Shown here piece after piece: positions 28,617 through 64,000 of a stretch of DNA of 64,000 nt; positions within the stretch are counted from its first letter, which is position 1, and the number at the start of each line of letters is the position of its first letter. The DNA lies in contig JBEDUK010000013.1 of NCBI GenBank assembly GCA_040414485.1, positions 10,570 through 74,569 of the forward strand, written 5' to 3'. The DNA comes from Actinomycetota bacterium. Its GTDB lineage: Bacteria; Actinomycetota; UBA4738. The notes below the pieces were generated by a model, which searched no databases, was not told the origin of the DNA, and saw only the letters and a program-made list of their open reading frames with translations. A program made the position numbers and the translations under genes.

Positions 28617-31496
28617 TCAGATGGACCGGCGCGCGAGCAGCGGCCGGGCGGCCGGCGCCGGCTCGGCGCGGATGCGCGCGTCGACGACGAGGGCGCCTTC
28701 GGGAAGCGCGATGACCGGATTGAGGTCGAGTTCGGCGATCTCCGCGTGTGCCTCGACCATGGCCCCCACGCGAAGGATCACGTCCTCGAGCGCCGCGACG
28801 TCGGCCTTCGGCGCACCACGGAAGCCGTCAAGTAGCGGAAACGTCGCGAGCGAGCGCAGCATCTCCCGGGCCTCCAGGTCGGTGAGCGGCGTCAGGCCGA
28901 CGCGGACGTCCTTGATCAGTTCGGCGGCGGTCCCTCCCGCGCCGACGGCGACGACCGGACCGAACAGCGGGTCGTGCACCACCCCCACCAGCATCTCGAC
29001 GCCGCCGTCGACCATCCGCTGGACGATGAACCCGTCCGCCTGGTGGCCGGCGTCCGTGAGGGCCTTCCGGAGCGCCCTCGCCTCCCGTTCGACCTGTGCG
29101 CGGCCGCTCAGGCCCAATCTGATCGCGCCGATGTCGGTCTTGTGCAGCACACCGGGGCCGAGTGCCTTCAGGGCGACCGTGCCGCCCAGGCGATCCGCTG
29201 CCGCGCCGGCCGCCCGGGCGGAACGCGCGACCTCGGACGGTGGAACCGCGAGCCCGTAGCAGGCGAGCAGGCGTTCGACCTCCTCCACGGTGAGCCACCC
29301 GCCTCCGCGGAGCAGCGCGCTGGCGATCGTGGCCGCCGCGCCGTCCGCATCGACCCGGGCCAGGTCGGGCATGGCGCCGACAGGCGCGCGCCGCCAGGCG
29401 CCGTACCCCACGGTATGGGCGAGCGCGCGGGCCGCTTCCTCTGGGAAGCCGAACGACGGAACGGTGCGCAAGCCGTTCGTTTCGGCAGACGCTCCGTCGT
29501 CCTGCGTGCGTTCGCCTCGAAGGATCGCCTCGGGAAGGCCGTCGGAGGACATGAACACGGCCAGGATCGGCATTTCGTGCCGGCGGCCTGCACTGTCACG
29601 CACCGCCTCGGCCACCGCGGTCGCCTCCGCGGCGAACGGAGGCAGGGAGATGACGATCAGCGCGTCGACCTCTCCGGCGGCCGCCAGCATGTCGATCGCC
29701 TCCGTGTACGCGGACGGGCCGGCCGAGGCGATCAGGTCGACCGGGTTGAGCACGCTCGCCGCGTGCGGGATCCGTTCGCGGAGGCGGCGCTGTGTGCCGT
29801 CGGAGAGGGCGGGCACCGTCAGGCCCAGAGCCTCGCACGCGTCGGCGCAGACGATGCCGGCGCCGCCGCCGTTGGTGACGATGCCGACGCGAGCGCCGCC
29901 CGGCACCGGCTGGCTCGCCAGGACCGATGCCACGTCGAACAACTCCGACAGCGTGTCGGTCCGGATCACGCCTGCCTGGCGGAACAGCGCATCCACGGTG
30001 AGGTCCGACGCGGCGATCAGCGCGCCGGTGTGCGAGCCCGTGGCGCGGACTCCGGCCGCGAAACGTCCGGATTTCACGGCAACGATCGGCTTGCTGCGCG
30101 AGACGCGTCGCGCGATCCTGCCGAAATTCCGGGGATTTCCGAAGGACTCGAGATACAGGAGGATCACCGCCGTATCGTCGTCCTGCTCCCAGAACTGGAT
30201 CACGTCGTTTCCGGAGATGTCGGCCTTGTTCCCGACCGAGACGAAGGACGACATGGCGAGGGGCGGCGCCGTCGCGCGGGTGACCGCGGCGACGCCGAGG
30301 CCGCCGCTCTGCGAGAGGAACCCGATGCGGCCGCGCGGCGGGTATCCGGGTGAGAACGTGGCGTTCATCCGGACCGCGGGGTCGGTGTTCATGATGCCCA
30401 TGCAGTTCGGCCCGATCAGGCGCATGCCGTATTCACGGCAGATCGACAGCAGCTCGCGCTGGCGAGCCCGGCCCTCGGCGCCGGTTTCGGCGAACCCGGC
30501 CGAGATCCCGACGAGCGCGCGGACGCCCGCCTCGCCGCAGGCCCGCGCGACGTCGGCGACCTGGTCGGCGGGAACGGCCACCAGGGCGAGGTCGACCGGG
30601 CCCGGGATGTCCCCGACCGAGGCGAACGCCGGGACCGACTGCACCACGGGAGCCGACGGGTTCACCGGGTAGACCGGTCCCTGGAAGCCCGTGGCGAGCA
30701 GGTTGTGGAACAACTCGCCCCCCACCGTTCCGCGCCGGCGCGACGCGCCGATCACGGCAACGGATGACGGCCGCAGGAAGGTCGTGAGGGCGGCCACCGC
30801 GGCGATGCGGTCGCGGTCCATGAAGCGCTCCAGGCCGTCCGGGGCGAGCGAGGTGGGGACCTCGATCTCCATGTATCCGGGCATCGAGCGGGTACGAAGC
30901 GGGAACCCGCTCGCCCGGATGACGCCGATCATGCGCCGGTTGTCCGGGAGGACCTGGTTGACGAAGACCTGGTAGCCGGCCTCGTGGGCGGCCTCGGCGA
31001 GGTGCGCGAGCAGGATCGTGCCGAGCCCCCGGCCCTGGTAGTCGTCGGCAACGGCGAAGGCCGACTCGGCAGCCACCACGGAAGGCGCGCTCCCCGTCGT
31101 ACCTGCCTCCGCCACCGCGATCTCCGACCCGTGATCGTGCGGCCGGTCCAGCCGCACATAGATCGCGTGGCCCACGATCCGGTGGTCGTGCCCCACGGTG
31201 GCGACGAGCGCGTACCGGTCGAGGTAGTCGACCTCCACCGACTGCTTCGCGGCCCGGTCCAGGTTCGCCCCGGCCGAGAAGAAGCGGAACGCCCGGGATT
31301 CGATGGACAGGTGCGCGTAGAACGCCCGCATCGCGGCCTCGTCGTCGGCTCGCACCGGCCTGATGTGGACCGTCGAGCCGTCTCGCAGGGCGACGTCCGC
31401 CTCGCGGTCGGCCGGATACGGGTGGCGCTCAGCCGTGGCGGCGCCGAGTGCCTTCAGCGTCGGCGTCGCTCGGTCCGGGGCGCTGGGGGTGGTCAC
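28617..31496 (-). CDS. GNAT acetyltransferase fused to ADP-forming acetyl-CoA synthetase (CoA-binding + ligase-CoA + ATP-grasp domains)
   Basis: N-terminal GNAT (QGRGLGTILLAHL), then SVAVIGASRR...GPNCMGI...ATP-grasp; start uncertain (GTG ~31496). Confidence 0.75.
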   Translation of the reverse strand: MTTPSAPDRATPTLKALGAATAERHPYPADREADVALRDGSTVHIRPVRADDEAAMRAFYAHLSIESRAFRFFSAGANLDRAAKQSVEVDYLDRYALVATVGHDHRIVGHAIYVRLDRPHDHGSEIAVAEAGTTGSAPSVVAAESAFAVADDYQGRGLGTILLAHLAEAAHEAGYQVFVNQVLPDNRRMIGVIRASGFPLRTRSMPGYMEIEVPTSLAPDGLERFMDRDRIAAVAALTTFLRPSSVAVIGASRRRGTVGGELFHNLLATGFQGPVYPVNPSAPVVQSVPAFASVGDIPGPVDLALVAVPADQVADVARACGEAGVRALVGISAGFAETGAEGRARQRELLSICREYGMRLIGPNCMGIMNTDPAVRMNATFSPGYPPRGRIGFLSQSGGLGVAAVTRATAPPLAMSSFVSVGNKADISGNDVIQFWEQDDDTAVILLYLESFGNPRNFGRIARRVSRSKPIVAVKSGRFAAGVRATGSHTGALIAASDLTVDALFRQAGVIRTDTLSELFDVASVLASQPVPGGARVGIVTNGGGAGIVCADACEALGLTVPALSDGTQRRLRERIPHAASVLNPVDLIASAGPSAYTEAIDMLAAAGEVDALIVISLPPFAAEATAVAEAVRDSAGRRHEMPILAVFMSSDGLPEAILRGERTQDDGASAETNGLRTVPSFGFPEEAARALAHTVGYGAWRRAPVGAMPDLARVDADGAAATIASALLRGGGWLTVEEVERLLACYGLAVPPSEVARSARAAGAAADRLGGTVALKALGPGVLHKTDIGAIRLGLSGRAQVEREARALRKALTDAGHQADGFIVQRMVDGGVEMLVGVVHDPLFGPVVAVGAGGTAAELIKDVRVGLTPLTDLEAREMLRSLATFPLLDGFRGAPKADVAALEDVILRVGAMVEAHAEIAELDLNPVIALPEGALVVDARIRAEPAPAARPLLARRSI

Positions 31497-31530
31497 CGAC
31501 CGCAGCGTAGCGCCGGTGACCGGCGGACGC

Positions 31531-32214
31531 TCAGCGGGTCGCGGCGGGTTCGGGCTCGCGCGCTTCCCGAACGTGCGGAGGGCTCGGGCGCAGGGGGACG
31601 GAGACGGACGCCGCCGCGGCCGCCCCTTCAACCTGTCGGCCGGCCCGCGCCCGGACCGCCGCGGGGGCGTTGGCGGGCACCGCCTTCCGCTGTGGACGCA
31701 GACCCGCGGTGAGCCCGCGCACCAGGACCAGGAACACCACGATCGCGGCCGTGGACACGTAGATCCACCACATCCACGGCCGGGCGGTGTCGGTTCCCGC
31801 GAACACCCCGTGGACCATGGCCAGCGAGAACATCGGCACGGCCAGGAGGTGCAGGCGCCGCCACCACGCCGGACCGACGCGCTTGCGGAGCCACGACGAA
31901 CAAAGGACCACCACGGTCAGGTACATCGCCAGGATCCCGGCCGCGACCGCGGGCGCCTTGAAGCTCGTGTGGAACGGCACCAGGACGTCGACCAGCGTGA
32001 ACGGCACGAATCGGTCGAGCAGGAGCCCGCCGAGGTGGAAGGTGAGGAGCGCCAACGCGGCCGTGGAGAGGAACTGGTGCACGGCCGTGGCCGTCGCCCG
32101 CGGCAGTCGCTTCCCGCCGATGGTCGTCGTGCCGGCCAGACCCCACGCCACGGTGCCGAACAGCATCACATACGCGCCGATGCCCGCGGCTCGGAGCACG
32201 ATCCACGTCAACAC
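31531..32214 (-). CDS. ferric-reductase-like (MsrQ/YedZ-like) transmembrane haem-binding protein
   Basis: 6 predicted TM helices with conserved His pairs (VHQFL...FHLGG; HLLAVPMF...VHGVF); GTG 32214 after GGGAGG SD, 4 nt after ApbE stop. Confidence 0.55.
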   Translation of the reverse strand: MLTWIVLRAAGIGAYVMLFGTVAWGLAGTTTIGGKRLPRATATAVHQFLSTAALALLTFHLGGLLLDRFVPFTLVDVLVPFHTSFKAPAVAAGILAMYLTVVVLCSSWLRKRVGPAWWRRLHLLAVPMFSLAMVHGVFAGTDTARPWMWWIYVSTAAIVVFLVLVRGLTAGLRPQRKAVPANAPAAVRARAGRQVEGAAAAASVSVPLRPSPPHVREAREPEPAATR

Positions 32215-33191
32215 GCCGCTCCGACCTCCCGTTCGGCGCCGGCGTCGTGCATGTTCACCAGGACGCGGCCGTCCTCCAGGAAGAGCACCACGGGAAACCG
32301 GTCGAGGATCTCCTCGGCCGCCAGGAGCGCCCATTTCGATCGGATCTCCGCCTCCGCGCCCGTGGATGCCCACGCCGTGGCCTGCACGACGCGGGTCGCC
32401 GATGACGTGCCGGTGCGCGGATCGATGATGTGGTGACGACGCTCCGCGCCGCGCGACCACGAGCGGAAGAGGGTCGAGGACGTGGCCAGGGCCCCCCCGT
32501 GGAGGTCGAGGTGCAATGCCACGCCGGACCCGTCGGGGTCGTCGACCGCGACGCGGAGCGCGCCACCGTTCGGGCGCCCCCGAAGCCGGAGGTCGCCCCC
32601 CGCGTCGATCAGGGACCAGGGAAGACTGCTGGTCCGCTGCGACGCGAGATCCGCCGCCCACCCCTTCGCGATCCCACCGAGATCGAGGGCAGTGTCCGGG
32701 GGGAGGAGGACTTGCCACGGATCCGCTACCAGGCGAACGTCCGCCCACCGTCCCACCGGCCCTGGAGGAGGCGCGTCGTCGCCGCCGGCGCGGGTGCCGG
32801 TCACGCGTCGGGGATCACCCGTGCCGGCACGCACCTCCTCGAAGTCGCGGTCGTACCCGGCCGCGACCAGGGCCGGAAGGATGGTGGGATCGAACAGCCC
32901 GTTGCTCGCGCGCGCTCCGGCGAGCGCCAGGGCGAGCACCGCGGCGAACGGATCCGAAATGCGGGTCCACCGTCCCGCTCGTGCGTTGACCTTCGAGAGT
33001 TCGCTGTCGGGCCGGAACCGGGACAGGCGGGCCTCGAGCTCGTCGAACCTCGACCGCACTCGGGCGGCTGCCGTGCGTGCGGCGGCCTCACAGCCGGCCG
33101 GCGCGACGAGGGAGATCTCGGTGCCCATGGCGCGAAACGAATGCCGCGTCTCGGTCGGGGGAACCCTGGTGCGGGCAGGTGCGGTCAGCAT
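32208..33191 (-). CDS. apbE: FAD:protein FMN transferase ApbE (paralog 2)
   Basis: RAMGTEISLV...RFDELEARLSRFRPDSELSKVNARAG...LDLGGIAKGWAAD; trimmed from ORF 32208..33572; start coupled to upstream small gene stop. Confidence 0.8.
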   Translation of the reverse strand: MLTAPARTRVPPTETRHSFRAMGTEISLVAPAGCEAAARTAAARVRSRFDELEARLSRFRPDSELSKVNARAGRWTRISDPFAAVLALALAGARASNGLFDPTILPALVAAGYDRDFEEVRAGTGDPRRVTGTRAGGDDAPPPGPVGRWADVRLVADPWQVLLPPDTALDLGGIAKGWAADLASQRTSSLPWSLIDAGGDLRLRGRPNGGALRVAVDDPDGSGVALHLDLHGGALATSSTLFRSWSRGAERRHHIIDPRTGTSSATRVVQATAWASTGAEAEIRSKWALLAAEEILDRFPVVLFLEDGRVLVNMHDAGAEREVGAAC

Positions 33192-33505
33192 GTCGAGCAC
33201 TTCGTCCGCACGCCGCCCCCGCCTCCGCTCGAGCCGCTGGAGCCGCCCGTGTAGACGTATCGAACCTGGGGCGGGCCGCTTTGTGCCGGCGCATTCGGCG
33301 GATCGACGATCACGATCCGTCGGGTGATCTTGCGGATCTCGGTCGGCGCCTGCTGCTGGCTCTGCGTTCCGGCGGATGCCGGCGGACGCGGGACCGCGTT
33401 CAGCACGACCCACGGCGTGGCGAAGGAGACCGCACCGGCAGCGTAGGCCCAGACACGGATCGTCCGCTTCGACCTGCGCGGCCGGCGAGATGAGGCGGCG
33501 GTCAT
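33185..33505 (-). CDS. small single-TM protein with TEIRKIT motif and Gly/Ser-rich C-terminus ending CSTC; paralog of 34460..34783
   Basis: ATGA overlap with ApbE1 stop, stop abuts ApbE2 start; high GC3; shares TEIRxIT...V.Y..GGSSGSS core with 34460..34783 product. Confidence 0.5.
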   Translation of the reverse strand: MTAASSRRPRRSKRTIRVWAYAAGAVSFATPWVVLNAVPRPPASAGTQSQQQAPTEIRKITRRIVIVDPPNAPAQSGPPQVRYVYTGGSSGSSGGGGGVRTKCSTC

Positions 33506-34473
33506 GGGTCGGTCCGCCCGTGCTCGGCTCGCTCGTCGCCGTCAAGGTTCGTGACGACCGCGCCGTCGTCACGAACCAGGACGACGGGGAGTCGTTCCAG
33601 CGCCCGGTCCGGCGCCAGGAGCGCCCATTTCGAGCCGACCTCGGCCTTCGCGCAGGTCGGACCCCAGACCGTGGCCTGGACCACGCCGGTCCGCGCCGGC
33701 AGGCCGGTGCGCGGGTCGATCAGATGGTGGCGGTCCGGGCCCCAGGCGCGCGCGGTCACGGCCGAGGTCGCGATCGCGCCGCGGCCGACCCGCAGACGGA
33801 GGATCTCGGTCCCGGGGTCGTGAGGATCCTCCACGCCGATGTCCACCGCGCCGCCGGGTGGCCTCCCGACCACGCGAAGGTCTCCGCCGGCATCGACCAT
33901 CGCCCATGGGAGCAATCCGCGCACGCGGCGAGCGGCGCGGTCGACGGTCCAGCCCTTGGCGATCCCGCCGAAGTCGAGCGCGACCCCGCCCGGGACCAGC
34001 ACGCGGTCGTCCCGGAGGCGGATCTCGCGCCAGCGGCCGCATGGTTCGGGTGGATGCAGCGCCAATCGTCCCCCGGCGATCACGTCGTCGAAGTCGCGGT
34101 CGTACCCGATCGCGAGCAGGGCCGGCAGCACCGTCGGGTCGAACAGCCCGCCCGTCCGTCGCGCCGCGTCGAGCGCCGCGCGCAGCACCGCATGGAACGG
34201 CTTCGACACGCGGGTCCACCGGCCGGCCGTCGCGTTGACCCGCGACAGCTCGGTCGCCTCGCGGAACCGGCTGAAGCGGTCGTCCTCGCGGCTGAATGTG
34301 GCACGGATCACGCCGAATGCCTCGTCGACGGCGGCGGCCGCGGCCGCGTCCGCCGGCCCGATCAGCGTGACGAGCGTTCCCATGGAACGGAACGAACGCC
34401 GTGCCCAGCGGACCGGTTCGGACGCATCCGAGACCTCGTCGATCCGGCGGGGGAGGGCCTCAGTCGTCGTCAC
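33502..34473 (-). CDS. apbE: FAD:protein FMN transferase ApbE (paralog 1)
   Basis: RSMGTLVTLIGP...FDEAFGVIRATFSREDDRFSRF...LDFGGIAKGWTVD; ~55% identical to paralog 2. Confidence 0.8.
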   Translation of the reverse strand: MTTTEALPRRIDEVSDASEPVRWARRSFRSMGTLVTLIGPADAAAAAAVDEAFGVIRATFSREDDRFSRFREATELSRVNATAGRWTRVSKPFHAVLRAALDAARRTGGLFDPTVLPALLAIGYDRDFDDVIAGGRLALHPPEPCGRWREIRLRDDRVLVPGGVALDFGGIAKGWTVDRAARRVRGLLPWAMVDAGGDLRVVGRPPGGAVDIGVEDPHDPGTEILRLRVGRGAIATSAVTARAWGPDRHHLIDPRTGLPARTGVVQATVWGPTCAKAEVGSKWALLAPDRALERLPVVLVRDDGAVVTNLDGDERAEHGRTDP

Positions 34474-34783
34474 CGCCCTGCCCCTCTTCGCCGTCGTCGC
34501 CGTGGTGATGCGAGCCGCCCGTGTGGTGGTAGGCCGAGGATCCGGAGGACGAGCCGCCGGAGGATCGGTGCACCGTGATCGTCACGGGCGAGGGCTTCGT
34601 CTTCGGCGTTTTCGCCTTCTTGTGGATCGTGATCGTGCGGATCTCCGTCCGAACGATCGGCTTCGCGGGTGCGGCGCGGTCCGCCGAGGCGGCCTGTTCG
34701 AGGGTCGCCGTGTACCCCACCACGCCGGACACCAGGGCGCCCGTCACGCCGCCGGCCAGTGCGATCGCCGTTCGCTTGTTCAA
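34460..34783 (-). CDS. small single-TM protein, TEIRTIT motif, Gly/Ser-rich then His-rich acidic tail (HHTGGSHHHGDDGEEGQGGDDD)
   Basis: overlaps ApbE1 start by 14 nt; paralog of 33185..33505. Confidence 0.5.
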   Translation of the reverse strand: MNKRTAIALAGGVTGALVSGVVGYTATLEQAASADRAAPAKPIVRTEIRTITIHKKAKTPKTKPSPVTITVHRSSGGSSSGSSAYHHTGGSHHHGDDGEEGQGGDDD

Positions 34784-34920: not shown

Positions 34921-34934
34921 GGGGCGTTCGGCCC
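34921..34934. promoter_or_regulatory. inverted repeat GGGGCGTTCGGCCC ~58 nt upstream of CBS-BON gene (and in divergent promoter of ApbE module operon)
   Basis: recurring motif family. Confidence 0.4.
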
Positions 34935-34992: not shown

Positions 34993-35712
34993 ATGGCCCG
35001 ACTGGTGAAGGACCTCATGACCCGAACGGTGGTCACCGTCCCCGAGGAGGCGCCGTTCAGGCAGATAGTCAAGTTGCTTGACGAATATCGGATCAGCGCG
35101 CTCCCGGTGGTCGACGCCGGCGATCGTTTGGTCGGGATCGTCTCCGAGGCGGATCTGCTGCTGAAGGAGGAACGCGACGACCGGGACCTGGACGAGCCTC
35201 GGCGGTCACCACCGTTCGAGAGCAGGAGGCGCAGGATCGAACGCATGAAGGCCGGCGGAACGGTCGCGCGCGATCTCATGACCACGCCGGTGGTCACGAT
35301 CGGCCCCGATGCGTCGGCGGGCGACGCCGCCCGGTTGATGCACCGCCAGGGTGTGAAGCGACTTCCGGTGGTGTGGCGCGATGGTCAGGTGCTGGGCATC
35401 GTGAGCCGGCGCGATCTCCTACGGCTGTTCCTGCGCAGCGACGCGGACATCCGCGAGGAGATCCATCACGAGGTGATGGAACGGACGCTCTGGATCGACC
35501 GGTACGCCGTCGCCGTCCAGGTTCGCGATGGCGTCGTGACGCTTCGCGGCGAACTCGACCGACGCTCGCTGTGTTCGATGCTGGTCACGCTTGTCGGGCG
35601 CGTGGAGGGCGTGGTCGGCGTCAACGACCGGCTGACGTATCGGATCGACGACTCCGACGTGCGGCCGCGCGGGGTCCCGCTGGAGCTGATCGTCACGGGT
35701 ATCCGGACGTGA
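34993..35712 (+). CDS. tandem CBS domain + BON domain protein
   Basis: two CBS repeats (RISALPVVD...GIVSEADLL; KRLPVVWRDGQVLGIVSRRDLL) and C-terminal BON-like region. Confidence 0.75.
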   Translation: MARLVKDLMTRTVVTVPEEAPFRQIVKLLDEYRISALPVVDAGDRLVGIVSEADLLLKEERDDRDLDEPRRSPPFESRRRRIERMKAGGTVARDLMTTPVVTIGPDASAGDAARLMHRQGVKRLPVVWRDGQVLGIVSRRDLLRLFLRSDADIREEIHHEVMERTLWIDRYAVAVQVRDGVVTLRGELDRRSLCSMLVTLVGRVEGVVGVNDRLTYRIDDSDVRPRGVPLELIVTGIRT

Positions 35713-35765
35713 TCCAGCGGCGTACAGGTGCACGGCACGAGCCGGCCGTCGTGCCCGGCACGGGC

Positions 35766-35779
35766 GGGCCATTCGGCAC
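35766..35779. promoter_or_regulatory. inverted-repeat variant GGGCCATTCGGCAC ~73 nt upstream of CBS-pair gene
   Basis: recurring motif family. Confidence 0.35.
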
Positions 35780-35851
35780 AGCTGCGGCACCGCGGCCTCC
35801 GCTAGCGTGCCCGCACGGGTCACGACGCACGTGGTCCGCGAAGGAGCCACG

Positions 35852-36220
35852 ATGAAGGTCGACGCGATCTACCGGCCGGAACTCTTCACGGTCGGGGCCG
35901 ATGACTCGCTCGCCGAGGCGGCGAGTTCGATGCAGTACAACGAGGTGGGGGCCCTTCCGGTGTACGAGGGCGAGCGGTTCGTCGGGATCATCACCGAGCG
36001 CGATCTGGTGCGCGCGATCGCCGACGACATCGCCCCGCAGGAGACTGCGGTTCGCGATTACATGACGCCGGATCCGGCGTCCATCACGCCCGAAACCGAC
36101 GTCCGCAACGCGGCCGAGCGCATGCTCCAGATGGGCGTCAGGCACCTGCCGGTGGTGGTCGGCGACGAAGTCGTCGGCATGGTGTCGGTTCGGGACCTCC
36201 TGATCGATTCGTCCGGCTGA
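35852..36220 (+). CDS. CBS-pair protein (hypoxic response protein 1-like)
   Basis: ATG 35852 after AAGGAGCC SD; two CBS domains in 122 aa. Confidence 0.8.
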   Translation: MKVDAIYRPELFTVGADDSLAEAASSMQYNEVGALPVYEGERFVGIITERDLVRAIADDIAPQETAVRDYMTPDPASITPETDVRNAAERMLQMGVRHLPVVVGDEVVGMVSVRDLLIDSSG

Positions 36221-36235
36221 TCGGGACCGGGCAGA

Positions 36236-37566: not shown

Positions 37567-37580
37567 GGGCCGACCGGCAC
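37567..37580. promoter_or_regulatory. inverted-repeat variant GGGCCGACCGGCAC 60 nt upstream of CoA-transferase gene
   Basis: recurring motif family. Confidence 0.3.
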
Positions 37581-37982: not shown

Positions 37983-37996
37983 GGGCCCTTCGGCAC
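37983..37996. promoter_or_regulatory. inverted-repeat variant GGGCCCTTCGGCAC ~78 nt upstream of WS/DGAT gene
   Basis: recurring motif family. Confidence 0.35.
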
Positions 37997-51821: not shown

Positions 51822-51898
51822 CGGCTCAAACGTGCCGGCCGGTCGTTGCCTGGCTTCATGATCAGAGGTGAAGACGTTGACGCCGTGCCCCACGACGG

Positions 51899-55296: not shown

Positions 55297-55497
55297 TCAG
55301 TGGTTGACCGGTTGCCTCCGGAGGACCTTCGCCGCGCCTGCGCTCGGGAAATAGACGGACTCGTGCCCGTCCGACCAGCGCACGCGGTACTGGATGCCAG
55401 TCGGATGTTCGATGATTTCGACGACGTCGCCCTCACGCGGCGTCTGACCCACCCCTTCCGACTCCACGATGATGCGATCGCCGACGCTGGCGTCCAT
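55297..55497 (-). CDS. DUF1918-like small protein (66 aa)
   Basis: GDRIIVES...YRVRWSDGHESVYFP; ATG 55497 after GAAGGAGG SD. Confidence 0.55.
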   Translation of the reverse strand: MDASVGDRIIVESEGVGQTPREGDVVEIIEHPTGIQYRVRWSDGHESVYFPSAGAAKVLRRQPVNH

Positions 55498-55561: not shown

Positions 55562-55575
55562 GGGACGTTCGGCCC
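55562..55575. promoter_or_regulatory. inverted repeat GGGACGTTCGGCCC 65 nt upstream of DUF1918 gene
   Basis: recurring motif family; this copy carries GGGAC half-site as in mycobacterial DosR boxes. Confidence 0.4.
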
Positions 55576-56753: not shown

Positions 56754-57761
56754 TCAATGCCGGGAGCGACTCGCGTAGCCCGCGATGGTCTTCATGTAGT
56801 TCGCCCGCTCGAACGCCGCCGGGTCGGGAAGCGAACGCTGGCTCATGGAGCCCCGGAGCTGTGACACGGATTCGTACTCATGCACGAGCATCCATTCGCG
56901 GAGCGCCTCTTCCACACGAGCGACGTGCTCGGGACCGTGCCGGAGGAGCGCCGACGTCATCATGGCCACATCGGCGCCGACCATCAGGACGCGAACCACG
57001 TCCTCCGCGGTGTGCACACCGGTCGTCGCCGCCAGATATGCGTCCACCCGTCCGTGCAGGATCCCGATCCAACGAAGCGGGAGTCGTAATTCGTTGGAAT
57101 TGGACAGCGTCAGGTGGCGGACGACGTGAAATTCCTCCAGGTCAAGGTCCGGCTGATAGAACCTGTTGAACAGCACCAGCCCGTCGGCGCCGGCCGCCAC
57201 CATGCGCCGGGCCATGTGCCCGATGGAGCTGAAGAACGGCCCCACCTTCACGGCGAGCGGGACGGTGACGGAGTCTCTGACCGCCTCGATGAGATCGAGG
57301 TACTGGCGTTCGACGTCGTCTCCCGACTGCCGGGTGTCGGCCGCCACGTAGTACACGTTCAATTCGAGCGCGTCGGCGCCGGCCTCCTGCAGGCGGCGCG
57401 CGTACCGGACCCACCAGCCGTCGGACACGCCGTTGAGGCTCGCGATCACCGGCACGGAGAGCGACGCCTTCGCTTCTTCGACCAGCTGCAGGTAGTCATC
57501 CGGCCCGGTGTTGTAGTCCTCGAGCTCCGGGAAGTAGGACAGCGCCTCCGCGAAGCATTCGGCGCCGGTTTCGATCACCCGGTCCAGGTGGAGCTCGGCG
57601 TGGGTGATCTGCTCCTCGAACAGCGACGGCAGCACGACCGCGGCGACGCCCGCGTCGTCCAGGCGCCGGAGGGATGGGAGCGACCCCGTCAGCGGCGAGG
57701 CGGACGCCACCAGCGGCGATCGGAGCGGGAGACCGAGGTATGTGGTCGAAAGGTCCGTCAC
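56754..57761 (-). CDS. dihydroorotate dehydrogenase-like protein (PFOR-associated)
   Basis: TIM-barrel DHOD family 1 similarity; start overlaps PFOR stop by 4 nt. Confidence 0.75.
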   Translation of the reverse strand: MTDLSTTYLGLPLRSPLVASASPLTGSLPSLRRLDDAGVAAVVLPSLFEEQITHAELHLDRVIETGAECFAEALSYFPELEDYNTGPDDYLQLVEEAKASLSVPVIASLNGVSDGWWVRYARRLQEAGADALELNVYYVAADTRQSGDDVERQYLDLIEAVRDSVTVPLAVKVGPFFSSIGHMARRMVAAGADGLVLFNRFYQPDLDLEEFHVVRHLTLSNSNELRLPLRWIGILHGRVDAYLAATTGVHTAEDVVRVLMVGADVAMMTSALLRHGPEHVARVEEALREWMLVHEYESVSQLRGSMSQRSLPDPAAFERANYMKTIAGYASRSRH

Positions 57762-60700
57762 GATGACACCTCCTCATCCGGCTCGACCGCCGGCAACGCC
57801 GGCGCGGTGCGTTCGACGCCGACCAGTTGCTCCTGGAAGCGGCGTCGCTCGCGCACATCCTCTTCCGCGAGGTCCATCAGCCGCCGATGGCCTGCGGGGT
57901 CGCTCCTCGCGAGCATCCAGAACCGCGCCTCGCGCGAGGTGAACTCCTCCAGCGGTATCGACGGTGGCTTCGCGTCCAGGTGGAACGGATGCTCGTGCTC
58001 GCCCGCGCCCGGGTTGAACCGGAACAGCGGCCAATAGCCGCTTCGGACCGCGTCCTTCTGGTGCGTCATGGACGTCGCCATGTCGATCCCGTGCGCGATG
58101 CACGTCGAATACGCGATCACCAGCGACGGACCGTCCCACGCCTCGGCCTCGAGCAGCGCCCGCACCGCCTGCATGTCGTTGGCGCCCAACGCGATCTGCG
58201 CGACATAGACGTTGCCGTAGGTGGTCGCGATCAGCCCGAGCTCCTTCTTCTCCGTCGGCTTGCCGCGCGCCGCGAACTTCGCCAGGGCGCCGCGCGGCGT
58301 GGACTTCGACGCCTGGCCGCCGGTGTTCGAATACACCTCGGTGTCGAGGACCAGGACGTTCACGTTGCGGCCGCTCGCCAGGACGTGATCGAGGCCGGCC
58401 GACCCGATGTCGTACGCCCAGCCGTCGCCGCCGACGATCCAGACGCTTCGACGCACGAGGTCGTCCGCCAGCCCGGCGAGGTCCTCTGCCGCCGAGGAAG
58501 TTGAACCGTTCAACGACGCGAGGCGGTGCTTGAGAGAGGTGACTCGGTCTCGCTGGAGTGCCACTTCATCGTCTGTCGACTGCGTCGCGTTCAGGATGCT
58601 GTTCGCCAGCGGCTCGCCCACATCCGCGGACAGCGACTCCAGCAGGTGCCGCGCGTGCGCGTTCTGCCGGTCGAGCGCCAGCCGCATGCCCAGGCCGAAT
58701 TCGGCGTTGTCCTCGAACAGCGAGTTCGCCCACGCGGGACCGCGCCCGTCCGAGGCCCGCGCCGACCATGGTGTCGTCGGCAGGTTCCCGCCGTAGATCG
58801 ACGAGCAGCCGGTCGCGTTCGCCACGATCAACCGGTCGCCGAAGAGCTGGGTGAGCAGCTTGAGGTACGGCGTCTCCCCGCACCCGGCGCACGCGCCCGA
58901 GAACTCGAACAGCGGCGGCCGGATCTGGGAGCCCTTGACCGTGTCGGGCTCCATGAATCCGGCCGGTGGATCGGGGATCGACAGGAAGAACTCGAACGCG
59001 TCGCGCTCGGCGGCGCGGAGGGGTTCGGCCGGCGCCATGTTCAGCGCCTTGTGCTTGATCTCCTCCTTGCTTCGTGCGGGGCACACGTCCACGCAGACGC
59101 CGCATCCGGTGCAGTCGTCGGGGGCGACCTGGATCGACAGCAGCGGTCCGGTGCCGCCGTCGGCGCCGCGCGCGTGCGCACCGAACGGCTTCGAACGGAA
59201 CCCCTCCGGCGCCCCGTCGAGCGACGCGGCGTCGAAGACCTTCATGCGGACAGCCGCGTGCGGACAGACGATCGCGCACTTGCCGCAGTCGATGCAGATC
59301 GAGGGATCCCACACGGGGATCTCCTCCCCGATCGCCCGCTTCTCCCATCGGGCGGTCCCGGTGGGGAACGTCCCGTCGACGGGCAGGGCGCTGACCGGGA
59401 GCAGGTCGCCCTGGCCCGCCAGCATCCGGGCCGTCACCCGCTGCACGAAGTCGGGGGCCTCCTGCCAGACGACGGCTCGTCGCGACGGCGCTGCGGCCGA
59501 CGCCTCGCCTGGGACGCGGACCCGCTGCAGCGCCTCCAGCGCCGCATCGACGGCGGCGAGGTTGCGCTGCACGACCGTCTCGCCGCGGCGCCCGTACGTC
59601 TTCTCGATCGAACGCCGGATCGCGGCCATCGCGTCGTCGCGGGGAAGCACGTCTGCCAGCGCGAAGAAGCACGGCTGCATCACGGTGTTGATCCGTCCGG
59701 CCAAGCCGGCCTCGCGGGCGACGCTGCCTGCGTCGATCACCCACAGGTCGAGCCCCTTGTCGATGATCGTCCGCTGAACCTCGGCCGGGAGCCGTTCCCA
59801 CACCTCATCCGGCCCGTACGGGCTGTTCAGCAGGAAGGTCGCGCCCGGCTCGGCCAGACCCAGGACGTCCACCCGGTCCAGCAGGCCGAGGTGATGGCAC
59901 GCCACGAAGTTCGCCCGCGAGATCAGGTACGTCGAGCGGATCGGCTCGCGCGAGAAGCGCAGGTGCGAAGTGGTAAGGCTACCTGACTTCTTCGAGTCGT
60001 AGACGAAGTACCCCTGCACGAACAGGCCGGTCTCCTCGCCGACAATCTTCGCGCTGTTCTTGTTCGCGCCGACCGTCCCGTCGCTGCCCAGTCCGAAGAA
60101 CACCGCGCGAACGTCGGCGCGGTCGGTCGAGAACGAGGGATCGACCGTGAGGCTCGTGTGCGTGACGTCGTCGACGATGCCCACCGTGAACCGGCGCTTC
60201 GGCTCCGGGGCTGCCAGCTCGCCGAATACGGCGGCGACCATCGCCGGGGTGAACTCCTTCGACGAGAGCCCGTACCGTCCGCCGATCACCAGGGGCATGG
60301 GCACCCCGTCGCTCATCGACCGCTCCGCGAACGCCGTCACGACGTCCTGGAGGAGCGGCTCGCCCTGCGCGCCCGGCTCCTTCGTTCGATCGAGCACCGC
60401 CACGGACCGGACGCTCGCCGGCAGCGCGTCGAAGAGCGCCGCCGTCGGGAACGGCCGGAACAGGCGGATGGTGAGCAGCCCGACGCGTTCCCCGGAGGCG
60501 TTCAGTGCCTCGACCGCCTCCCCGGCTGCGCCGGCGCCCGAGCCCATCAGCACCATCACGCGCTCGGCGTCCGGCGCGCCGGTGTAGTCGATCAGGTGGT
60601 ACCGGCGGCCGGTCTGTGCGGCCAGGGAGTCCATCGATGCCTGGACCGCGTCCGGCACGGCTACGTAGAACGGGTTGCAGGCCTCGCGCGCCTGGAAGAA

Positions 60701-61396
60701 CACGTCGGGGTTCTGGGCCGAGCCGCGCAGCACCGGCCGGTCCGGGGTGAGGCCTCGTGACCGGTGCGCGCGGACGGCCTCCAGGTCGATCAGCGCCAGC
60801 AGGTCCTCGTCGGACAGCGGCCGGATGCGGTCGATCTCGTGCGAGGTGCGGAAGCCGTCGAAGAAGTGCAGGAACGGGACGCGCGTGGCAAGGGTTGTCG
60901 CGTGCGAAACCGCCGCCAGGTCCTGTGCCTCCTGGACGGTCGAGGAGCACAGCATCGCCCACCCGGTCGGTCGCACCGCCATGACGTCCGACTGGTCGCC
61001 GAAGATCGACAGGGCGTGGGTGGCGACGGTTCGCGCCGCGACGTGGATGACCGCCGGGGTCAGTTCCCCGGCGATCTTGAACATGTTCGGGATCATGAGA
61101 AGCAGGCCCTGCGACGCGGTGAACGTCGTCGCCAGCGCGCCGCGCATCACCGCTCCATGGAGCACGCCGGCCGCGCCGGCTTCCGACTGCATCTCGACCA
61201 CCTCGGGGACCTGGCCCCAGAGGTTCTGCCGTCCGGCGGCGCTCCATGCGTCGGCAAGTTCACCCATCACCGACGCCGGGGTGATCGGATAGATGGCGAT
61301 CACCTCCGACAGGCGATGGGCAACTGCTGCGACGGCTTCGTTCCCATCCACGCACGCGTCCACGGCGGTGCGCGTCTCGCGATCGATGACGGCCAT
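57758..61396 (-). CDS. nifJ: pyruvate:ferredoxin (flavodoxin) oxidoreductase
   Basis: 1212 aa; VDGNEAVAAVAHRLSEVIAIYPITPAS N-terminus, CIDCGKCAIVCPH and CTGCGVCVDVCP ferredoxin motifs, TPP GDGW motif. Confidence 0.95.
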   Translation of the reverse strand: MAVIDRETRTAVDACVDGNEAVAAVAHRLSEVIAIYPITPASVMGELADAWSAAGRQNLWGQVPEVVEMQSEAGAAGVLHGAVMRGALATTFTASQGLLLMIPNMFKIAGELTPAVIHVAARTVATHALSIFGDQSDVMAVRPTGWAMLCSSTVQEAQDLAAVSHATTLATRVPFLHFFDGFRTSHEIDRIRPLSDEDLLALIDLEAVRAHRSRGLTPDRPVLRGSAQNPDVFFQAREACNPFYVAVPDAVQASMDSLAAQTGRRYHLIDYTGAPDAERVMVLMGSGAGAAGEAVEALNASGERVGLLTIRLFRPFPTAALFDALPASVRSVAVLDRTKEPGAQGEPLLQDVVTAFAERSMSDGVPMPLVIGGRYGLSSKEFTPAMVAAVFGELAAPEPKRRFTVGIVDDVTHTSLTVDPSFSTDRADVRAVFFGLGSDGTVGANKNSAKIVGEETGLFVQGYFVYDSKKSGSLTTSHLRFSREPIRSTYLISRANFVACHHLGLLDRVDVLGLAEPGATFLLNSPYGPDEVWERLPAEVQRTIIDKGLDLWVIDAGSVAREAGLAGRINTVMQPCFFALADVLPRDDAMAAIRRSIEKTYGRRGETVVQRNLAAVDAALEALQRVRVPGEASAAAPSRRAVVWQEAPDFVQRVTARMLAGQGDLLPVSALPVDGTFPTGTARWEKRAIGEEIPVWDPSICIDCGKCAIVCPHAAVRMKVFDAASLDGAPEGFRSKPFGAHARGADGGTGPLLSIQVAPDDCTGCGVCVDVCPARSKEEIKHKALNMAPAEPLRAAERDAFEFFLSIPDPPAGFMEPDTVKGSQIRPPLFEFSGACAGCGETPYLKLLTQLFGDRLIVANATGCSSIYGGNLPTTPWSARASDGRGPAWANSLFEDNAEFGLGMRLALDRQNAHARHLLESLSADVGEPLANSILNATQSTDDEVALQRDRVTSLKHRLASLNGSTSSAAEDLAGLADDLVRRSVWIVGGDGWAYDIGSAGLDHVLASGRNVNVLVLDTEVYSNTGGQASKSTPRGALAKFAARGKPTEKKELGLIATTYGNVYVAQIALGANDMQAVRALLEAEAWDGPSLVIAYSTCIAHGIDMATSMTHQKDAVRSGYWPLFRFNPGAGEHEHPFHLDAKPPSIPLEEFTSREARFWMLARSDPAGHRRLMDLAEEDVRERRRFQEQLVGVERTAPALPAVEPDEEVSS

Positions 61397-61587
61397 GGTT
61401 CCAACCTCTCTCCAGCCTCTGCCGGTGACGTTATGGCCCCGGTGAACGGCCGCCTTGGGTCCGATGGCCCACCGCAAGCCGGGCCGGATGGCCCGAGGAC
61501 GCGGGCCCGAAGTGCCTGACGGCGAACGCACGGGCGCACGAGTCTCGGTGCGTTGATTCAAGAGGTGTCTGCCTACGGAGGTTCGAC

Positions 61588-62766
61588 ATGGACATCCACG
61601 ACGGCGGGACGATCCGGACGGTCGGCGTTCCGCGAGCGGCGAGAGCCGGAGAGCGCCGCGTCGCAGTGACGCCGGCGATGGTGCCCGTCTACGAGAAGGC
61701 CGGGCTGGGGGTGATCGTCGAACGCGGCGCGGGTGCCGCGGCGGGCTTCCTCGACGACGCGTACAGAGACCGCGGAGCGACCCTGGCCGGACGCGACGAG
61801 GTCTTCGAACGAAGCGACCTGCTCGCCCAGATCAGGGTGGCCGGGCCGGACGAGCGCCCGACGCTTCGGCCCGGTCAGATCGCCGTGGGCCTGTCAGGGG
61901 CGCTGGATGCGACGCATCTGGCGACCGGGATGGCGGCCTCGGGCGCAACGGTCTTCGGCCTGGAACTGCTCCCCCGGATCACCCGCGCGCAGTCGATGGA
62001 CGTGTTGAGCTCGCAGGCCACGGTCGCCGGGTACGCGGCGGTCCTGGTCGGTTCGGCCAGGCTGGCGAAGATGCTGCCGATGATGACCACCGCCGCCGGG
62101 ACGGTGCCGCCGTCCCGCACGCTCGTCGTCGGCGCGGGCGTGGCAGGGCTCCAGGCGATCGCCACCGCCCGGCGCCTCGGCGCCGTGGTCGAGGCCTACG
62201 ACGTCAGGCAGGCGGCGGCTGAGGACGTGGAGAGCCTGGGCGCGCGGTTCGTCGAGCTGCCTCTCAACCCCGGCGACGCCGAGGACGCCAGCGGCTACGC
62301 GAAGGCGCTCGGCGAATCGTTCTACCGCCGGCAGCGCGAACTCCTGGGTCGGGTCGTGTCGAAGGCGGACCTGGTGGTCTGCACGGCCCTCCTGGTCGGC
62401 CGCCCGGCGCCGGTCCTCGTGACCGCGGACGCGGTCCGATCGATGGGCCGCGGGTCCGTGGTCGTCGACCTCGCGGCGGAGAAGGGCGGGAACTGCGAGG
62501 TCACGGAGCCCGACGAGGAGGTGCTCACGGATGAGGGCGTGCTCGTCCTCGGCCCGACCAACCTGGCTTCGGCGACTCCGGCGACCGCCAGCCAGCTGTT
62601 CGCCAAGAACGTGTCGGCGTTCGTCCTGCATGTGGTGAGAGAAGGGGTCCTGACGGTCGACTCGGAGGATCCGATCGCCACGCAGACGCTCGTCTGCCGC
62701 GCCGGCGCCGTCGTGAACAAGCGGGTCGTGAGCATGTTCGAGGAGCACGAGGGGAGGGCGGCGTGA
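61588..62766 (+). CDS. pntAA: NAD(P) transhydrogenase subunit alpha part 1
   Basis: GVVERGAGAAAGF..., VVGAGVAGLQAI Rossmann motif. Confidence 0.9.
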   Translation: MDIHDGGTIRTVGVPRAARAGERRVAVTPAMVPVYEKAGLGVIVERGAGAAAGFLDDAYRDRGATLAGRDEVFERSDLLAQIRVAGPDERPTLRPGQIAVGLSGALDATHLATGMAASGATVFGLELLPRITRAQSMDVLSSQATVAGYAAVLVGSARLAKMLPMMTTAAGTVPPSRTLVVGAGVAGLQAIATARRLGAVVEAYDVRQAAAEDVESLGARFVELPLNPGDAEDASGYAKALGESFYRRQRELLGRVVSKADLVVCTALLVGRPAPVLVTADAVRSMGRGSVVVDLAAEKGGNCEVTEPDEEVLTDEGVLVLGPTNLASATPATASQLFAKNVSAFVLHVVREGVLTVDSEDPIATQTLVCRAGAVVNKRVVSMFEEHEGRAA

Positions 62767-64000
62767 TGTCCGCGTCGATCGAGGCGGGGCTGTACGTCCT
62801 GGTGTTGGCGACCTTCCTTGGATTCGAACTGATCCGGCGCGTGCCGAAACTGCTGCATACGCCGCTGATGGCGCTGACGAACGCGATCTCCGGCGTGGCC
62901 CTCGTGGGATCGCTGGTCGTCGCGGGCGCCGATCATCCCGGTTGGGCGGTCGCGTTGGGGGCCGTGGCGGTGATGACCTCGACGATCAACGTCGTTGGCG
63001 GGTTCCTCATCACCGACCGCATGCTGCGCATGTTCAGGCGTCGCGATCCTTCCGCGGCGGAGGCTGGCACCGATGTCGCCGGAGCGGAGAAGGCCACGCC
63101 GACGGCGCAGACGGTGTCGAAGAGGTTCCTGGTGCCGGCCGCCGGCGCCGCCTCGCTGGTAGCGATCTGGGCCGTCCGGTCCGCGTGGACCGGCGGCGCC
63201 GGGCGCGGGACGGCGACCTTCACGACGCTGATGTACCTGGGCGCGGCGGCGGCGTTCGTCCTCGGGCTCGGCTGGCTGACCGACCCGCGCACCGCGCGCC
63301 GCGGCGTGCTGGTGGCCGAGGTCGGGATGCTGCTCGCGGTCGTCGGCACACTGGTCAAGGCCGACGTCGTGTCGTTCGAATGGATCCTGCTCGCGGCGGC
63401 GGTGGGGACCGCGATCGGAATCCCGATTGCGCGGCTGACGCCCATGACCGCGGTGCCGCAGATGATCGCGCTGTCGCACGCGTTCGGCGCGCTGGCGGCG
63501 GCGTTGGTGGGGACCGTCGAGTACTACCTGCGCCAACCTCGGATCTCGGCGTTCACCATGACCGTGATCGGGATCGAGGTCCTGCTCGGGTACCTGACGT
63601 TCACGGGCTCGCTCATGGCCTTCGGCAAGCTGCAGGGGGTTCTGCCCGAACGCCCGCTGGTCTACAAAGGTCAGAACGTCGTGAACCTCGGTGTGCTGGC
63701 GCTGGCGCTCGGCATCGGGGTGTGGCTCGCGGTGAGCCCGGGCGGAGCCGTGGCGTTCGCCGTCATGGCCGCGCTCGCGCTCGCGTTCGGCGTCATGCTG
63801 ATCGTCCCGATCGGCGGGTCGGACATGCCGACGGTCATCTCGCTGATGAACTCCTACGCCGGGCTGGCCGGCGCCGCGATGGGGTTCGTGCTCCGGAACC
63901 CGCTGCTGATCGTGGCCGGCGCCCTGAACGGCGCGTCAGGGCTCCTGCTGTCCGTGATCATGTGCCGGGCGATGAACCGTTCGTTCACGAACGTCCTGTT
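62766..64000 (+). CDS. pntB: NAD(P) transhydrogenase alpha part 2 fused in-frame to beta subunit N-terminus (runs off window end)
   Basis: own translation: MSASIEAGLYVLVLATFLGFELI...RMLRMF (PntAB) continues without stop through linker into ...DMPTVISLMNSYAGLAGAAMGF...CRAMNRSF (PntB). Confidence 0.7.
   Translation, partial: MSASIEAGLYVLVLATFLGFELIRRVPKLLHTPLMALTNAISGVALVGSLVVAGADHPGWAVALGAVAVMTSTINVVGGFLITDRMLRMFRRRDPSAAEAGTDVAGAEKATPTAQTVSKRFLVPAAGAASLVAIWAVRSAWTGGAGRGTATFTTLMYLGAAAAFVLGLGWLTDPRTARRGVLVAEVGMLLAVVGTLVKADVVSFEWILLAAAVGTAIGIPIARLTPMTAVPQMIALSHAFGALAAALVGTVEYYLRQPRISAFTMTVIGIEVLLGYLTFTGSLMAFGKLQGVLPERPLVYKGQNVVNLGVLALALGIGVWLAVSPGGAVAFAVMAALALAFGVMLIVPIGGSDMPTVISLMNSYAGLAGAAMGFVLRNPLLIVAGALNGASGLLLSVIMCRAMNRSFTNVL

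Follow-up and report, generated by a model that had tools for sequence, protein, structure and literature searches.

A probable DosR-type regulon island with hydrogenase, pyruvate-oxidation and lipid-storage genes in an uncultured actinobacterium

Do the genes for pyruvate oxidation, acetate formation, hydrogen metabolism and lipid storage that lie beside a DosS/DosR-type sensor–regulator pair in an uncultured actinobacterium form one hypoxia-controlled fermentation? The question is raised by a stretch of 64,000 nucleotides (the window; contig JBEDUK010000013.1, positions 10,570 to 74,569, of assembly GCA_040414485.1), in which a preliminary description had listed a pyruvate:ferredoxin oxidoreductase (PFOR) with a dihydroorotate dehydrogenase (DHOD)-like partner, an ADP-forming acetyl-CoA synthetase (ACD) fused to a GNAT domain (GNAT-ACD), an acetyl-CoA hydrolase/transferase, a group 3b [NiFe]-hydrogenase (Hyh), a PntAB transhydrogenase and a triacylglycerol (TAG) synthase (tgs). 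Pfam and NCBIfam searches found every gene of this list in its described place. The region is in all likelihood a DosR-type regulon island containing these genes, and the chances that the island operates as pyruvate → acetate/TAG + H2 are about even. We rather favour the combined statement, that of a DosS/DosR-controlled hypoxia and redox-stress island of uncultured Actinomycetota that ferments as proposed. Because spurious long open reading frames (ORFs) are common at a G+C content of ~70%, which prevails across the entire window, genes were called from third-position GC, start/stop overlaps and the family searches. The nearest relatives of the window proteins come from uncultured Actinomycetota metagenome-assembled genomes; the hydrogenase large subunit (HyhL) is 84% identical to that of the closest genome representative (MFD04944.bin.2.174, locus L001). 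The host is an uncultured high-GC Actinomycetota lineage.

The sensor–regulator pair lies directly upstream of the metabolic genes, which occupy the range 28617–64000, so that the co-location noted earlier is borne out. The following features are found in this part of the window:

25063–25734, minus strand, dosR-type response regulator with receiver and LuxR/GerE domains (Pfam; best solved relative DevR, 3c3w)
25787–27436, minus strand, dosS/dosT-type sensor kinase with a GAF-GAF-HisKA_3-HATPase architecture (Pfam)
27520–28089, plus strand, SRPBCC-like gene, divergent from dosS
28120–28566, minus strand, small receiver-like protein without a family match (sequence read directly)

The best solved relative of the regulator, M. 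tuberculosis DevR, is matched with E = 1.4e-53, and the recognition helix (LAEKTVKNYVS) is identical in the two proteins. The first GAF domain of the kinase (GAF-A) has its best matches in DosT (2vzw, 4e-47) and DevS (2w3d), with E-values in the range of about 1e-47 to 1e-42, and is ~55% identical to the haem domains of both; residues of the haem pocket are kept, with the HHPPMR histidine and the YL tyrosine aligned. Judged from these alignments, the DosS and DosR of the window are true orthologues of the M. tuberculosis pair. The SRPBCC-like gene also adjoins dosR/dosS in the related contigs L101, L138 and L055.

If the pair governs the island, its operator should be recognizable. Reading of the intergenic regions revealed a recurring GGGCCGWWCGGCCC-like palindrome, which occurs at the following sites (palindromes given without strand where both flanking units are concerned):

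27503–27516, unstranded, GGGCCGTTCGGCCG, one mismatch, between dosS and the SRPBCC-like gene, centre 73 bp from the dosS start
28591–28604, exact box GGGCCGAAGGTCCC, upstream of the small receiver-like gene
34921–34934, unstranded, GGGGCGTTCGGCCC, in the divergent promoter region of the ApbE...GNAT-ACD operon and the CBS-BON gene, centre 66 bp from the CBS-BON start and 144 bp from the orf107 start
37567–37580, box of the CoA-transferase gene, centre 66 bp upstream
37983–37996, box of tgs, centre 86 bp upstream
51809–51822, unstranded, exact box GGGCCGAACGGCCC, between hyhB and the divergent ybaK-like/P-type ATPase operon, centre 64 bp from the hyhB start
55562–55575, exact box GGGACGTTCGGCCC, centre 71 bp upstream of the DUF1918 gene
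61457–61516, unstranded, three tandem boxes (61457, 61481, which is exact, and 61503) with spacings of 24 and 22 bp between PFOR and pntAA, centres 67–113 bp from the PFOR start and 79–125 bp from the divergent pntAA start

In the window, GGGMCGWWCGKCCC has six matches with at most one mismatch (0.97 expected), and the general form GGGMC-N4-GKCCC (GGGMCNNNNGKCCC) has five exact matches (1.5 expected). The strict M. tuberculosis core GGGACNNNNGTCCC was rejected as an operator definition, with four matches at up to one mismatch against 8.2 expected. When the general form was searched with at most one mismatch between 25063 and 64000, 10 of 29 matches were intergenic, where intergenic sequence makes up 4.6% of the DNA (binomial p = 3.5e-7), and the remaining 19 fell in coding regions. 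All four exact boxes in this range are intergenic, 61–91 bp from a start codon, and box centres lie at this same distance 5′ of the starts of dosS, the small receiver-like gene, CBS-BON, the CoA-transferase gene, tgs, hyhB, DUF1918 and PFOR. Of the transcription units of the module, most carry the box (hyh, PFOR/pnt, CoA-transferase, tgs, CBS-BON and dosS).

The box also keeps its position in relatives. Among 46 high-GC loci with a related hydrogenase, 28 (61%) have a box with at most one mismatch at −120 to −20 of hyhB, compared with 5.2% when 100-bp windows are drawn at random from these loci; exact boxes precede hyhB in 11 of the 46, mostly at −50 to −75. In 64 high-GC loci (1.07 Mb), 17 of 38 pairs of neighbouring boxes are spaced by exactly 23 bp and 22 of 38 by 22–24 bp, and this tandem spacing argues that the architecture of the boxes is not a product of chance. 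Examples of tandems are 61457/61481/61503 of the window, 5405/5428 in L063, 3454/3477 in L109 and 4288/4311 in L101. Around the primary boxes of the window a secondary box at ±23 bp is a weak trend, except at PFOR/pnt and hyhB. One box-like match, at 50239–50252 inside hyhG, was discarded: several relatives have it at an identical place in the coding sequence (+1450 to +1484, counted from the start of hyhB), so that it reflects conservation of the protein rather than a binding site. The published M. tuberculosis DosR consensus is TTSGGGACTWWAGTCCCSAA (PMC2275270); it has its half-site, GGG(A/C)C, in common with the window box and differs from it in the spacer. The earlier claim that several members carry a DosR-like box hence needs rewording: it is right for the variant GGGMC-N4-GKCCC, which is intergenic and conserved in position, and wrong for the M. 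tuberculosis consensus. With its 23-bp tandems, the variant could serve as an operator definition for predicting hypoxia regulons in metagenome-assembled genomes.

The hydrogenase cluster is the best conserved part of the island. It is composed of the following genes:

50591–51751, minus strand, hyhB (Pfam Fer4_22; NCBIfam HydB-type)
49698–50594, minus strand, hyhG (Pfam NAD_binding_1 and DHODB_Fe-S_bind; NCBIfam HydG-type)
48823–49698, minus strand, hyhS (Pfam Oxidored_q6; NCBIfam HydD-type)
47504–48826, minus strand, hyhL (Pfam NiFeSe_Hases; NCBIfam HydA-type)
46944–47507, minus strand, maturation protease
44845–46947, minus strand, hypF (NCBIfam TIGR00143)
43681–44829, minus strand, asnA (NCBIfam, above the equivalog cut-off)

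Stops and starts overlap from hyhB through hyhG and hyhS to hyhL, and the gene for the maturation endopeptidase and then hypF follow downstream, an order that is conserved in about 45–56 of 60 related loci. The four subunits comprise a large subunit, a small subunit, an AsrA-like Fe-S beta subunit and a PyrK/AsrB-like FAD/NAD(P) gamma subunit, and their best NCBIfam matches are the sulfhydrogenase families HydB/G/D/A or ShyB/C/D/A (sulfhyd_HydA and ShyA for HyhL). The 440-residue HyhL contains both CxxC motifs for Ni-Fe (RICGICPVAY and DPCISCATH). Its best solved relatives are the alpha subunit of P. furiosus soluble hydrogenase I (9nez, 1.8e-71) and the T. kodakarensis enzyme (5yxy), which together with 9e15 score at about 1e-70 to 1e-71, compared with ~1e-44 for other group 3 classes (Mvh, NAD-reducing SH and Frh). 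The assignment to group 3b appears sound, since the solved relatives and the four sulfhydrogenase subunit matches agree, and the four-subunit enzyme with maturation protease and HypF stands as first described. The cluster shares its four-subunit make-up and the HyhL similarity (~1e-71) with the archaeal soluble hydrogenase I; it differs from it in scoring far under the archaeal equivalog cut-offs, in its bacterial host and in its regulation. In this window only (0 of 60 related loci), hypF is followed by asnA, the gene for an aspartate–ammonia ligase.

The second box-marked pair of divergent units supplies a possible electron source and a means of adjusting the nicotinamide pools:

57758–61396, minus strand, PFOR of the single-chain NifJ type (TIGR02176, 1664 bits, cut-off 911)
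56754–57761, minus strand, DHOD-like flavoprotein gene (NF005741, 471 bits, cut-off 303)
61588–62766, plus strand, pntAA (Pfam, NCBIfam)
62763–64000, plus strand, in-frame pntAB-pntB fusion, cut by the end of the window (Pfam, NCBIfam)

PFOR contains POR_N, POR, EKR, 2x[4Fe-4S] and TPP domains (Pfam). Its stop overlaps the DHOD-like gene by 4 nt, so that the two are translationally coupled, and with both scores above their cut-offs the pair agrees with the initial annotation. PFOR lies directly upstream of a DHOD-like gene of NF005741 in 46 of 51 testable metagenome loci (L061–L140) of widely different GC content. The partner is not a true dihydroorotate dehydrogenase, as the cysteine of 1ep1 (ISCPN) aligns with a tyrosine (ELNVYY). 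Across 81 members of the DHOD-like family, this residue (Tyr137) is conserved to at least 95%, and no cysteine is conserved. In Propionibacterium a similar gene adjoins PFOR, and its product has been suggested to belong to an Nfn-like complex (PMC7650540). It may be the DHOD-like protein that links PFOR to the hydrogenase. The transhydrogenase call is borne out as far as the window reaches: domain dI (PntAA) and the membrane domain dII are present, and PntB ends at profile position 268 of 460, which places dIII beyond the end of the window at 64000. The junction between pntAB and pntB reads without a stop codon; a PntAB segment with four transmembrane helices is joined to PntB by a linker of ~50 residues, and in L027 the parts are in different frames.

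The carbon branch of the proposed route depends on GNAT-ACD, on the CoA-transferase and on the lipid genes:

28617–31496, minus strand, N-terminal GNAT followed by an NDP-forming acyl-CoA synthetase (CoA_binding, Succ_CoA_lig, ATP-grasp_5), 959 residues (Pfam)
31531–34783, minus strand, operon upstream of GNAT-ACD (frame-specific third-position GC, Pfam), with the next four entries
in the frame of 31531–32748, minus strand, Ferric_reduct-like membrane protein
32208–~33190, minus strand, ApbE
33502–34473, minus strand, ApbE
within 31531–34783, minus strand, orf106 and the membrane-anchored orf107
34993–36220, plus strand, CBS-CBS-BON protein and CBS-pair protein (Pfam)
36236–37507, minus strand, family I CoA-transferase (acetyl-CoA hydrolase/transferase family; AcetylCoA_hydro N- and C-terminal domains, Pfam)
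38074–39474, plus strand, WS/DGAT tgs (TIGR02946, 418 bits, cut-off 310; HHAMADG motif)
39471–40661, plus strand, GNAT-like protein
~40850–41728, plus strand, alpha/beta hydrolase

GNAT-ACD is 100% identical to P0001 (NCBI), and its best solved relative is the ADP-forming 4-hydroxybutyrate-CoA ligase 8wzu (7e-125). The GNAT domain matches the Pat-type structures 4nxy (the GNAT of SlPatA) and 4u5y at ~5e-27, and its YQGRGLG segment corresponds to the acetyl-CoA-binding Q/RxxGxG/A motif. Like the Pat-type acetyltransferases (E. coli PatZ, type I, and S. lividans PatA, type II), the protein joins a GNAT domain to a module resembling NDP-forming acyl-CoA synthetases, and the order GNAT-then-ACD is that of the type II Pat architecture, as in SlPatA (PMC12184503). 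A non-catalytic synthetase module as in PatZ was considered and rejected: unlike PatZ (9isq), which reads ...NTT-----AG... at this position and lacks the phospho-histidine, the window protein keeps SHTGA/S as in true ACDs, and its GSHTGAL motif aligns with the SHTG of 4xyl, 8wzu, 2csu and 9y43; this alpha-subunit histidine is the only one that was compared in PatZ. SHTG is kept in 120 of the 120 best homologues. The LHKTD motif, with the histidine of the ATP-grasp part that is reportedly the catalytic one in the ACD1 structure, aligns with IHKSD/LHKTD of 8wzu and 9y43, and HK[ST][DE] occurs in 118 of the same 120. As both histidine motifs are kept in nearly all homologues, the synthetase half is under selection for catalysis and looks catalytically competent, and ATP formation from acyl-CoA by this protein is plausible. 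It shares the domain set, SHTG and HK[ST][DE] with the ADP-forming acyl-CoA synthetases (4xyl, 8wzu, 2csu, 9y43) and differs from them in the N-terminal GNAT. The fusion that had been described is upheld, and its acetyl-CoA specificity is not, the equivalogs lying below their cut-offs.

The promoter region of the ApbE...GNAT-ACD operon, including box 34921, is shared with CBS-BON. The two ApbE flavin transferases and the Ferric_reduct-like protein may constitute a flavinylated membrane electron-transfer system. Two small proteins are encoded in the same operon, one of them membrane-anchored with a His-rich tail. ORF 31628–32206 (minus strand; 'unk192') was dropped, as third-position GC marks it as non-coding in that frame and the true gene uses that of 31531–32748 (minus strand). 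The CoA-transferase carries both Pfam domains of the acetyl-CoA hydrolase/transferase family and was properly placed in it. The TAG synthase call held at the level of the family, in that the protein scores above the cut-off of the WS/DGAT family (TAG or wax ester synthases) and has the active-site HHxxxDG as HHAMADG. CBS genes recur beside PFOR, ACD and DosR in L063, L101 and L138. The CBS-pair protein is of a class to which M. tuberculosis Rv2626c also belongs; a specific relationship to Hrp1/Rv2626c was rejected, as Rv2626c is matched at 1e-9 and is not the best match.

Are these genes linked beyond this one window? Around the hyhBGSL-protease-hypF core, window genes recur in shuffled order. 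In L030, PFOR-DHODlike-hyhBGSL-hycI-hypF form one co-directional string, in which PFOR is preceded by an exact box and hyhB by none; in L035, PFOR-DHODlike-pntA-pntB lie upstream of hyh; pnt is beside hyh in L027 and L009, GNAT-ACD in L025, and a P-type ATPase with ApbE in L055. Three metagenome contigs found via the DHOD-like protein add the regulators: L101 with DosS...SRPBCC-DosR-PFOR-DHODlike, L138 with GNAT-ACD-CBS-CBS-DHODlike and both DosR and DosS, and L063 with GNAT-ACD...CBS-PFOR-DHODlike and tandem boxes. Where DosRS are present (L138, also L101), DosR is 84–87% identical to that of the window. Recurrent linkage with variable gene order is a classical sign of functional coupling, and the shuffled recurrence of the window genes argues for such coupling here. 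L063 (15302–16648) and L138 (1233–3118) encode a different [NiFe]-hydrogenase, whose large subunit shares only 30% identity with HyhL.

The closest known system is that of M. smegmatis, in which DosS/T-DosR activates the group 3b Hyh and triacylglycerol synthases, and H2 evolution by hypoxic cells goes along with the storage of carbon as TAG (Gillett et al. 2023, bioRxiv 10.1101/2023.09.11.557286); the DosR-Hyh work of Berney et al. 2014 is cited there. The window resembles this system in its orthologous haem-GAF kinase and NarL-type regulator, in its four-subunit group 3b hydrogenase with protease and hypF, in the WS/DGAT and CBS-type proteins of the regulatory neighbourhood, and in a palindromic GGGxC...GxCCC operator 5′ of the targets. 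Unlike in M. smegmatis, the box-marked set includes the nifJ-type PFOR/DHOD-like pair, PntAB, the CoA-transferase and, by operon, GNAT-ACD; the half-sites are GGGCC/GGGAC with a G+C-rich spacer and not GGGACTWWAGTCCC; and the window comes from an uncultured lineage, with the nearest genome at only 84% HyhL identity. It is thus a known type of DosR/Hyh/Tgs system in another lineage, and what is new is the variant operator and the enlarged box-marked set. The latter points to pyruvate as the donor of electrons and to acetate/ATP as a further outlet for carbon. With the M. tuberculosis DosR (DevR) regulon the window shares the orthologous DosR and DosS, an autoregulatory box before the sensor/regulator operon and multi-box promoters. 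The neighbours here include tgs, a type II P-type ATPase and a CBS-pair protein; ctpF and Rv2626c are members of the M. tuberculosis regulon. We know of no group 3b hydrogenase, PFOR or ACD in that regulon. A further difference is that its consensus (PMC2275270) is not strictly matched in the window.

From these comparisons a course of events can be proposed. The haem-GAF of DosS would sense loss of O2 or a reduced state and phosphorylate DosR, as orthology suggests. DosR~P would bind GGGMC-N4-GKCCC palindromes ~60–90 bp 5′ of starts, often as 23-bp tandems, and at least eight units would be switched on: dosSR, the small receiver-like gene, CBS-BON/CBS, the CoA-transferase gene, tgs with the lipid genes, hyhBGSL-protease-hypF(-asnA), DUF1918, and PFOR-DHODlike with the divergent pntA/pntB. 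Going by its family, PFOR would convert pyruvate to acetyl-CoA, CO2 and low-potential electrons. Acetyl-CoA could then give acetate and ATP via the ACD half of GNAT-ACD or the CoA-transferase, or be directed to TAG by WS/DGAT. Excess reductant would leave as H2 through the NAD(P)-linked group 3b hydrogenase, for which M. smegmatis sets the precedent, and PntAB would balance NADH and NADPH. The carrier between PFOR and the hydrogenase would be a ferredoxin/ferredoxin:NAD(P)+ oxidoreductase (FNR) system encoded elsewhere, or the PFOR-coupled DHOD-like flavoprotein.

Several observations weigh against this proposal. Binding and activation by DosR at the window boxes are inferred from sequence, and the strict M. 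tuberculosis core is not enriched in the window. Within ±10 kb, the hyh cluster is all that most relatives conserve. PFOR reduces ferredoxin and group 3b enzymes are NAD(P)-linked; a search of the window for a separate ferredoxin gene gave only the clusters inside PFOR and HyhB, and FNR was likewise not found in the window, so nothing encoded here connects PFOR to a hydrogenase of the NAD(P)H type. The window HypF (TIGR00143, 475 bits, cut-off 466) covers only profile positions 90–741; it starts at the zinc-finger region and lacks the acylphosphatase domain, which, with its VQGVGFRPFVW motif, is kept in the HypF of relatives L001, L002, L025, L027 and L030 (around 11800–12200). Given this and the absence of hypA-E from the window, maturation of the hydrogenase cannot be confirmed. 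The complete route from pyruvate to acetate and H2 that had been put forward is hence right in its gene identities and incomplete in the window at the ferredoxin/FNR step and at maturation. On the carbon side, the best NCBIfam match of the CoA-transferase is butyryl-CoA:acetate CoA-transferase (319 bits, cut-off 675), and all substrate-specific equivalogs score under their cut-offs. For GNAT-ACD, AcCoA-syn-alpha reaches 465 bits (cut-off 567), and the best match, 4-hydroxybutyrate-CoA ligase, is also below its own cut-off; the gene has no box of its own, is the last of the ApbE/membrane-protein operon and has the architecture of SlPatA-type protein acetyltransferases. The word acetate does not occur in the text of the M. 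smegmatis paper (10.1101/2023.09.11.557286), and as that organism stores rather than excretes carbon, acetate output is not implied by the precedent.

The island could instead be a co-regulated DosR stress regulon and not one linear pathway, which we regard as the most serious alternative, if a fairly unlikely one. GNAT-ACD would then act mainly as a Pat-type lysine acetyltransferase that shuts off AMP-forming acyl-CoA synthetases, PFOR/DHOD-like would serve another electron sink, Hyh would do no more than bleed off NAD(P)H, as in M. smegmatis, and carbon would go to TAG and not leave as acetate. The homology of the GNAT to that of SlPatA (4nxy, 5e-27) in the type II Pat order (PMC12184503) agrees with this, as does the position of GNAT-ACD in the ApbE/membrane-protein operon without a box of its own; moreover, the PFOR-DHODlike pair, which occurs in 46 of 51 loci of very different organisms, has hyh adjacent in 0 of 43 testable metagenome loci. 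What speaks for a pathway instead is that both ACD histidine motifs are kept in essentially all 120 homologues, when PatZ lacks the histidine of the alpha subunit, on which alone it was compared, that PFOR-DHODlike-hyh form one gene string in L030, and that GNAT-ACD recurs with hyh, PFOR and DosRS in L025, L063 and L138.

A bolder form of the pathway, which we hold to be unlikely, would have PFOR and the DHOD-like flavoprotein pass pyruvate electrons directly to Hyh as a DosR-switched 'pyruvate:H+ oxidoreductase', with GNAT-ACD as an ATP-forming acetate enzyme that also acetylates targets. The flavoprotein has a tyrosine in place of the DHOD cysteine and no Fe-S cluster, and in L030 its gene stands in a single string with those of PFOR and Hyh. 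If this form were true, a fermentation to acetate, CO2 and H2 with substrate-level phosphorylation would exist in nominally aerobic Actinomycetota. It is very unlikely that the island runs in the reductive direction, with Hyh oxidizing H2 to NAD(P)H, PntAB adjusting the pools, PFOR acting as pyruvate synthase and the reducing power flowing to fatty-acid/TAG synthesis. In vitro, both group 3b enzymes and PFOR can work in either direction, and tgs and pnt are box-marked together with hyh and PFOR; yet the regulator is an orthologue of a hypoxia/redox sensor system, H2 is evolved in the one case of a DosR-controlled group 3b enzyme that has been studied by experiment, the histidine-intact ACD and the CoA-transferase point to acyl-CoA consumption, and no CO2-fixation genes were among the family-search matches in the window. 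That the co-location is coincidental and the box a chance GC-rich palindrome of a 70% GC genome is hardly credible, for, common as such palindromes are, and despite the 19 coding-region matches and the missing enrichment of the strict core, the intergenic enrichment (p = 3.5e-7), the fixed distance to starts, the presence before hyhB in 61% of relatives against 5% of controls, the sharp 23-bp spacing and the shuffled recurrence of the same genes in several related contigs all speak against it.

On the reading we favour, a DosS/DosR-controlled island that ferments, the window would extend the hypoxic hydrogen fermentation known from M. smegmatis to an uncultured soil actinobacterium. To our knowledge, DosR-activated hydrogen fermentation has so far been documented in M. 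smegmatis only, where it is still debated which electron source feeds Hyh and what becomes of the carbon. The window offers candidates for the missing steps: PFOR/DHOD-like as electron source, GNAT-ACD or the CoA-transferase for ATP/acetate, PntAB for pool balance and WS/DGAT for carbon storage. Judging by the island and by its shuffled versions, which occur on further Actinomycetota contigs from soil and groundwater, the DosR/Hyh response may be widespread among lineages not yet in culture.

The remaining neighbours of the box-marked genes are as follows:

51920–55269, plus strand, YbaK/tRNA_edit-domain gene and type II P-type cation ATPase (ATPase 52402–55269; Pfam, NCBIfam)
55297–55497, minus strand, DUF1918 protein (Pfam)
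55656–56654, minus strand, orf332 (332 residues), between the DHOD-like gene and the DUF1918 gene

The YbaK/tRNA_edit gene is coupled to the ATPase gene by an ATGA overlap, and the pair is divergent from hyhB with a box in common; an ATPase 69% identical to that of the window lies beside hyh in L055. A homologue of the DUF1918 protein is found near hyh in L001. Its identification with the DosR-regulon protein Rv1738 was dropped, the only match being a weak one to Rv2302 (2a7y, E = 0.003). Orf332 gave no family match; its third-position GC is below that of its neighbours, and it may be a recent insertion. An Rfam scan and a tRNA scan of the window gave no matches, and no promoter-proximal DosR-like box was seen in positions 1–25000. 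That part of the window is phosphate-related, with two pst-like ABC transporter sets and several PBP_like_2 proteins, and it also encodes the polyphosphate kinase Ppk1, a CYTH-CHAD protein, an OmpR-type regulator and a sortase. Just past the asnA stop, between the convergent asnA and unk152, a perfect G+C-rich hairpin with a short T run (TTTC) is located at 43625–43660.

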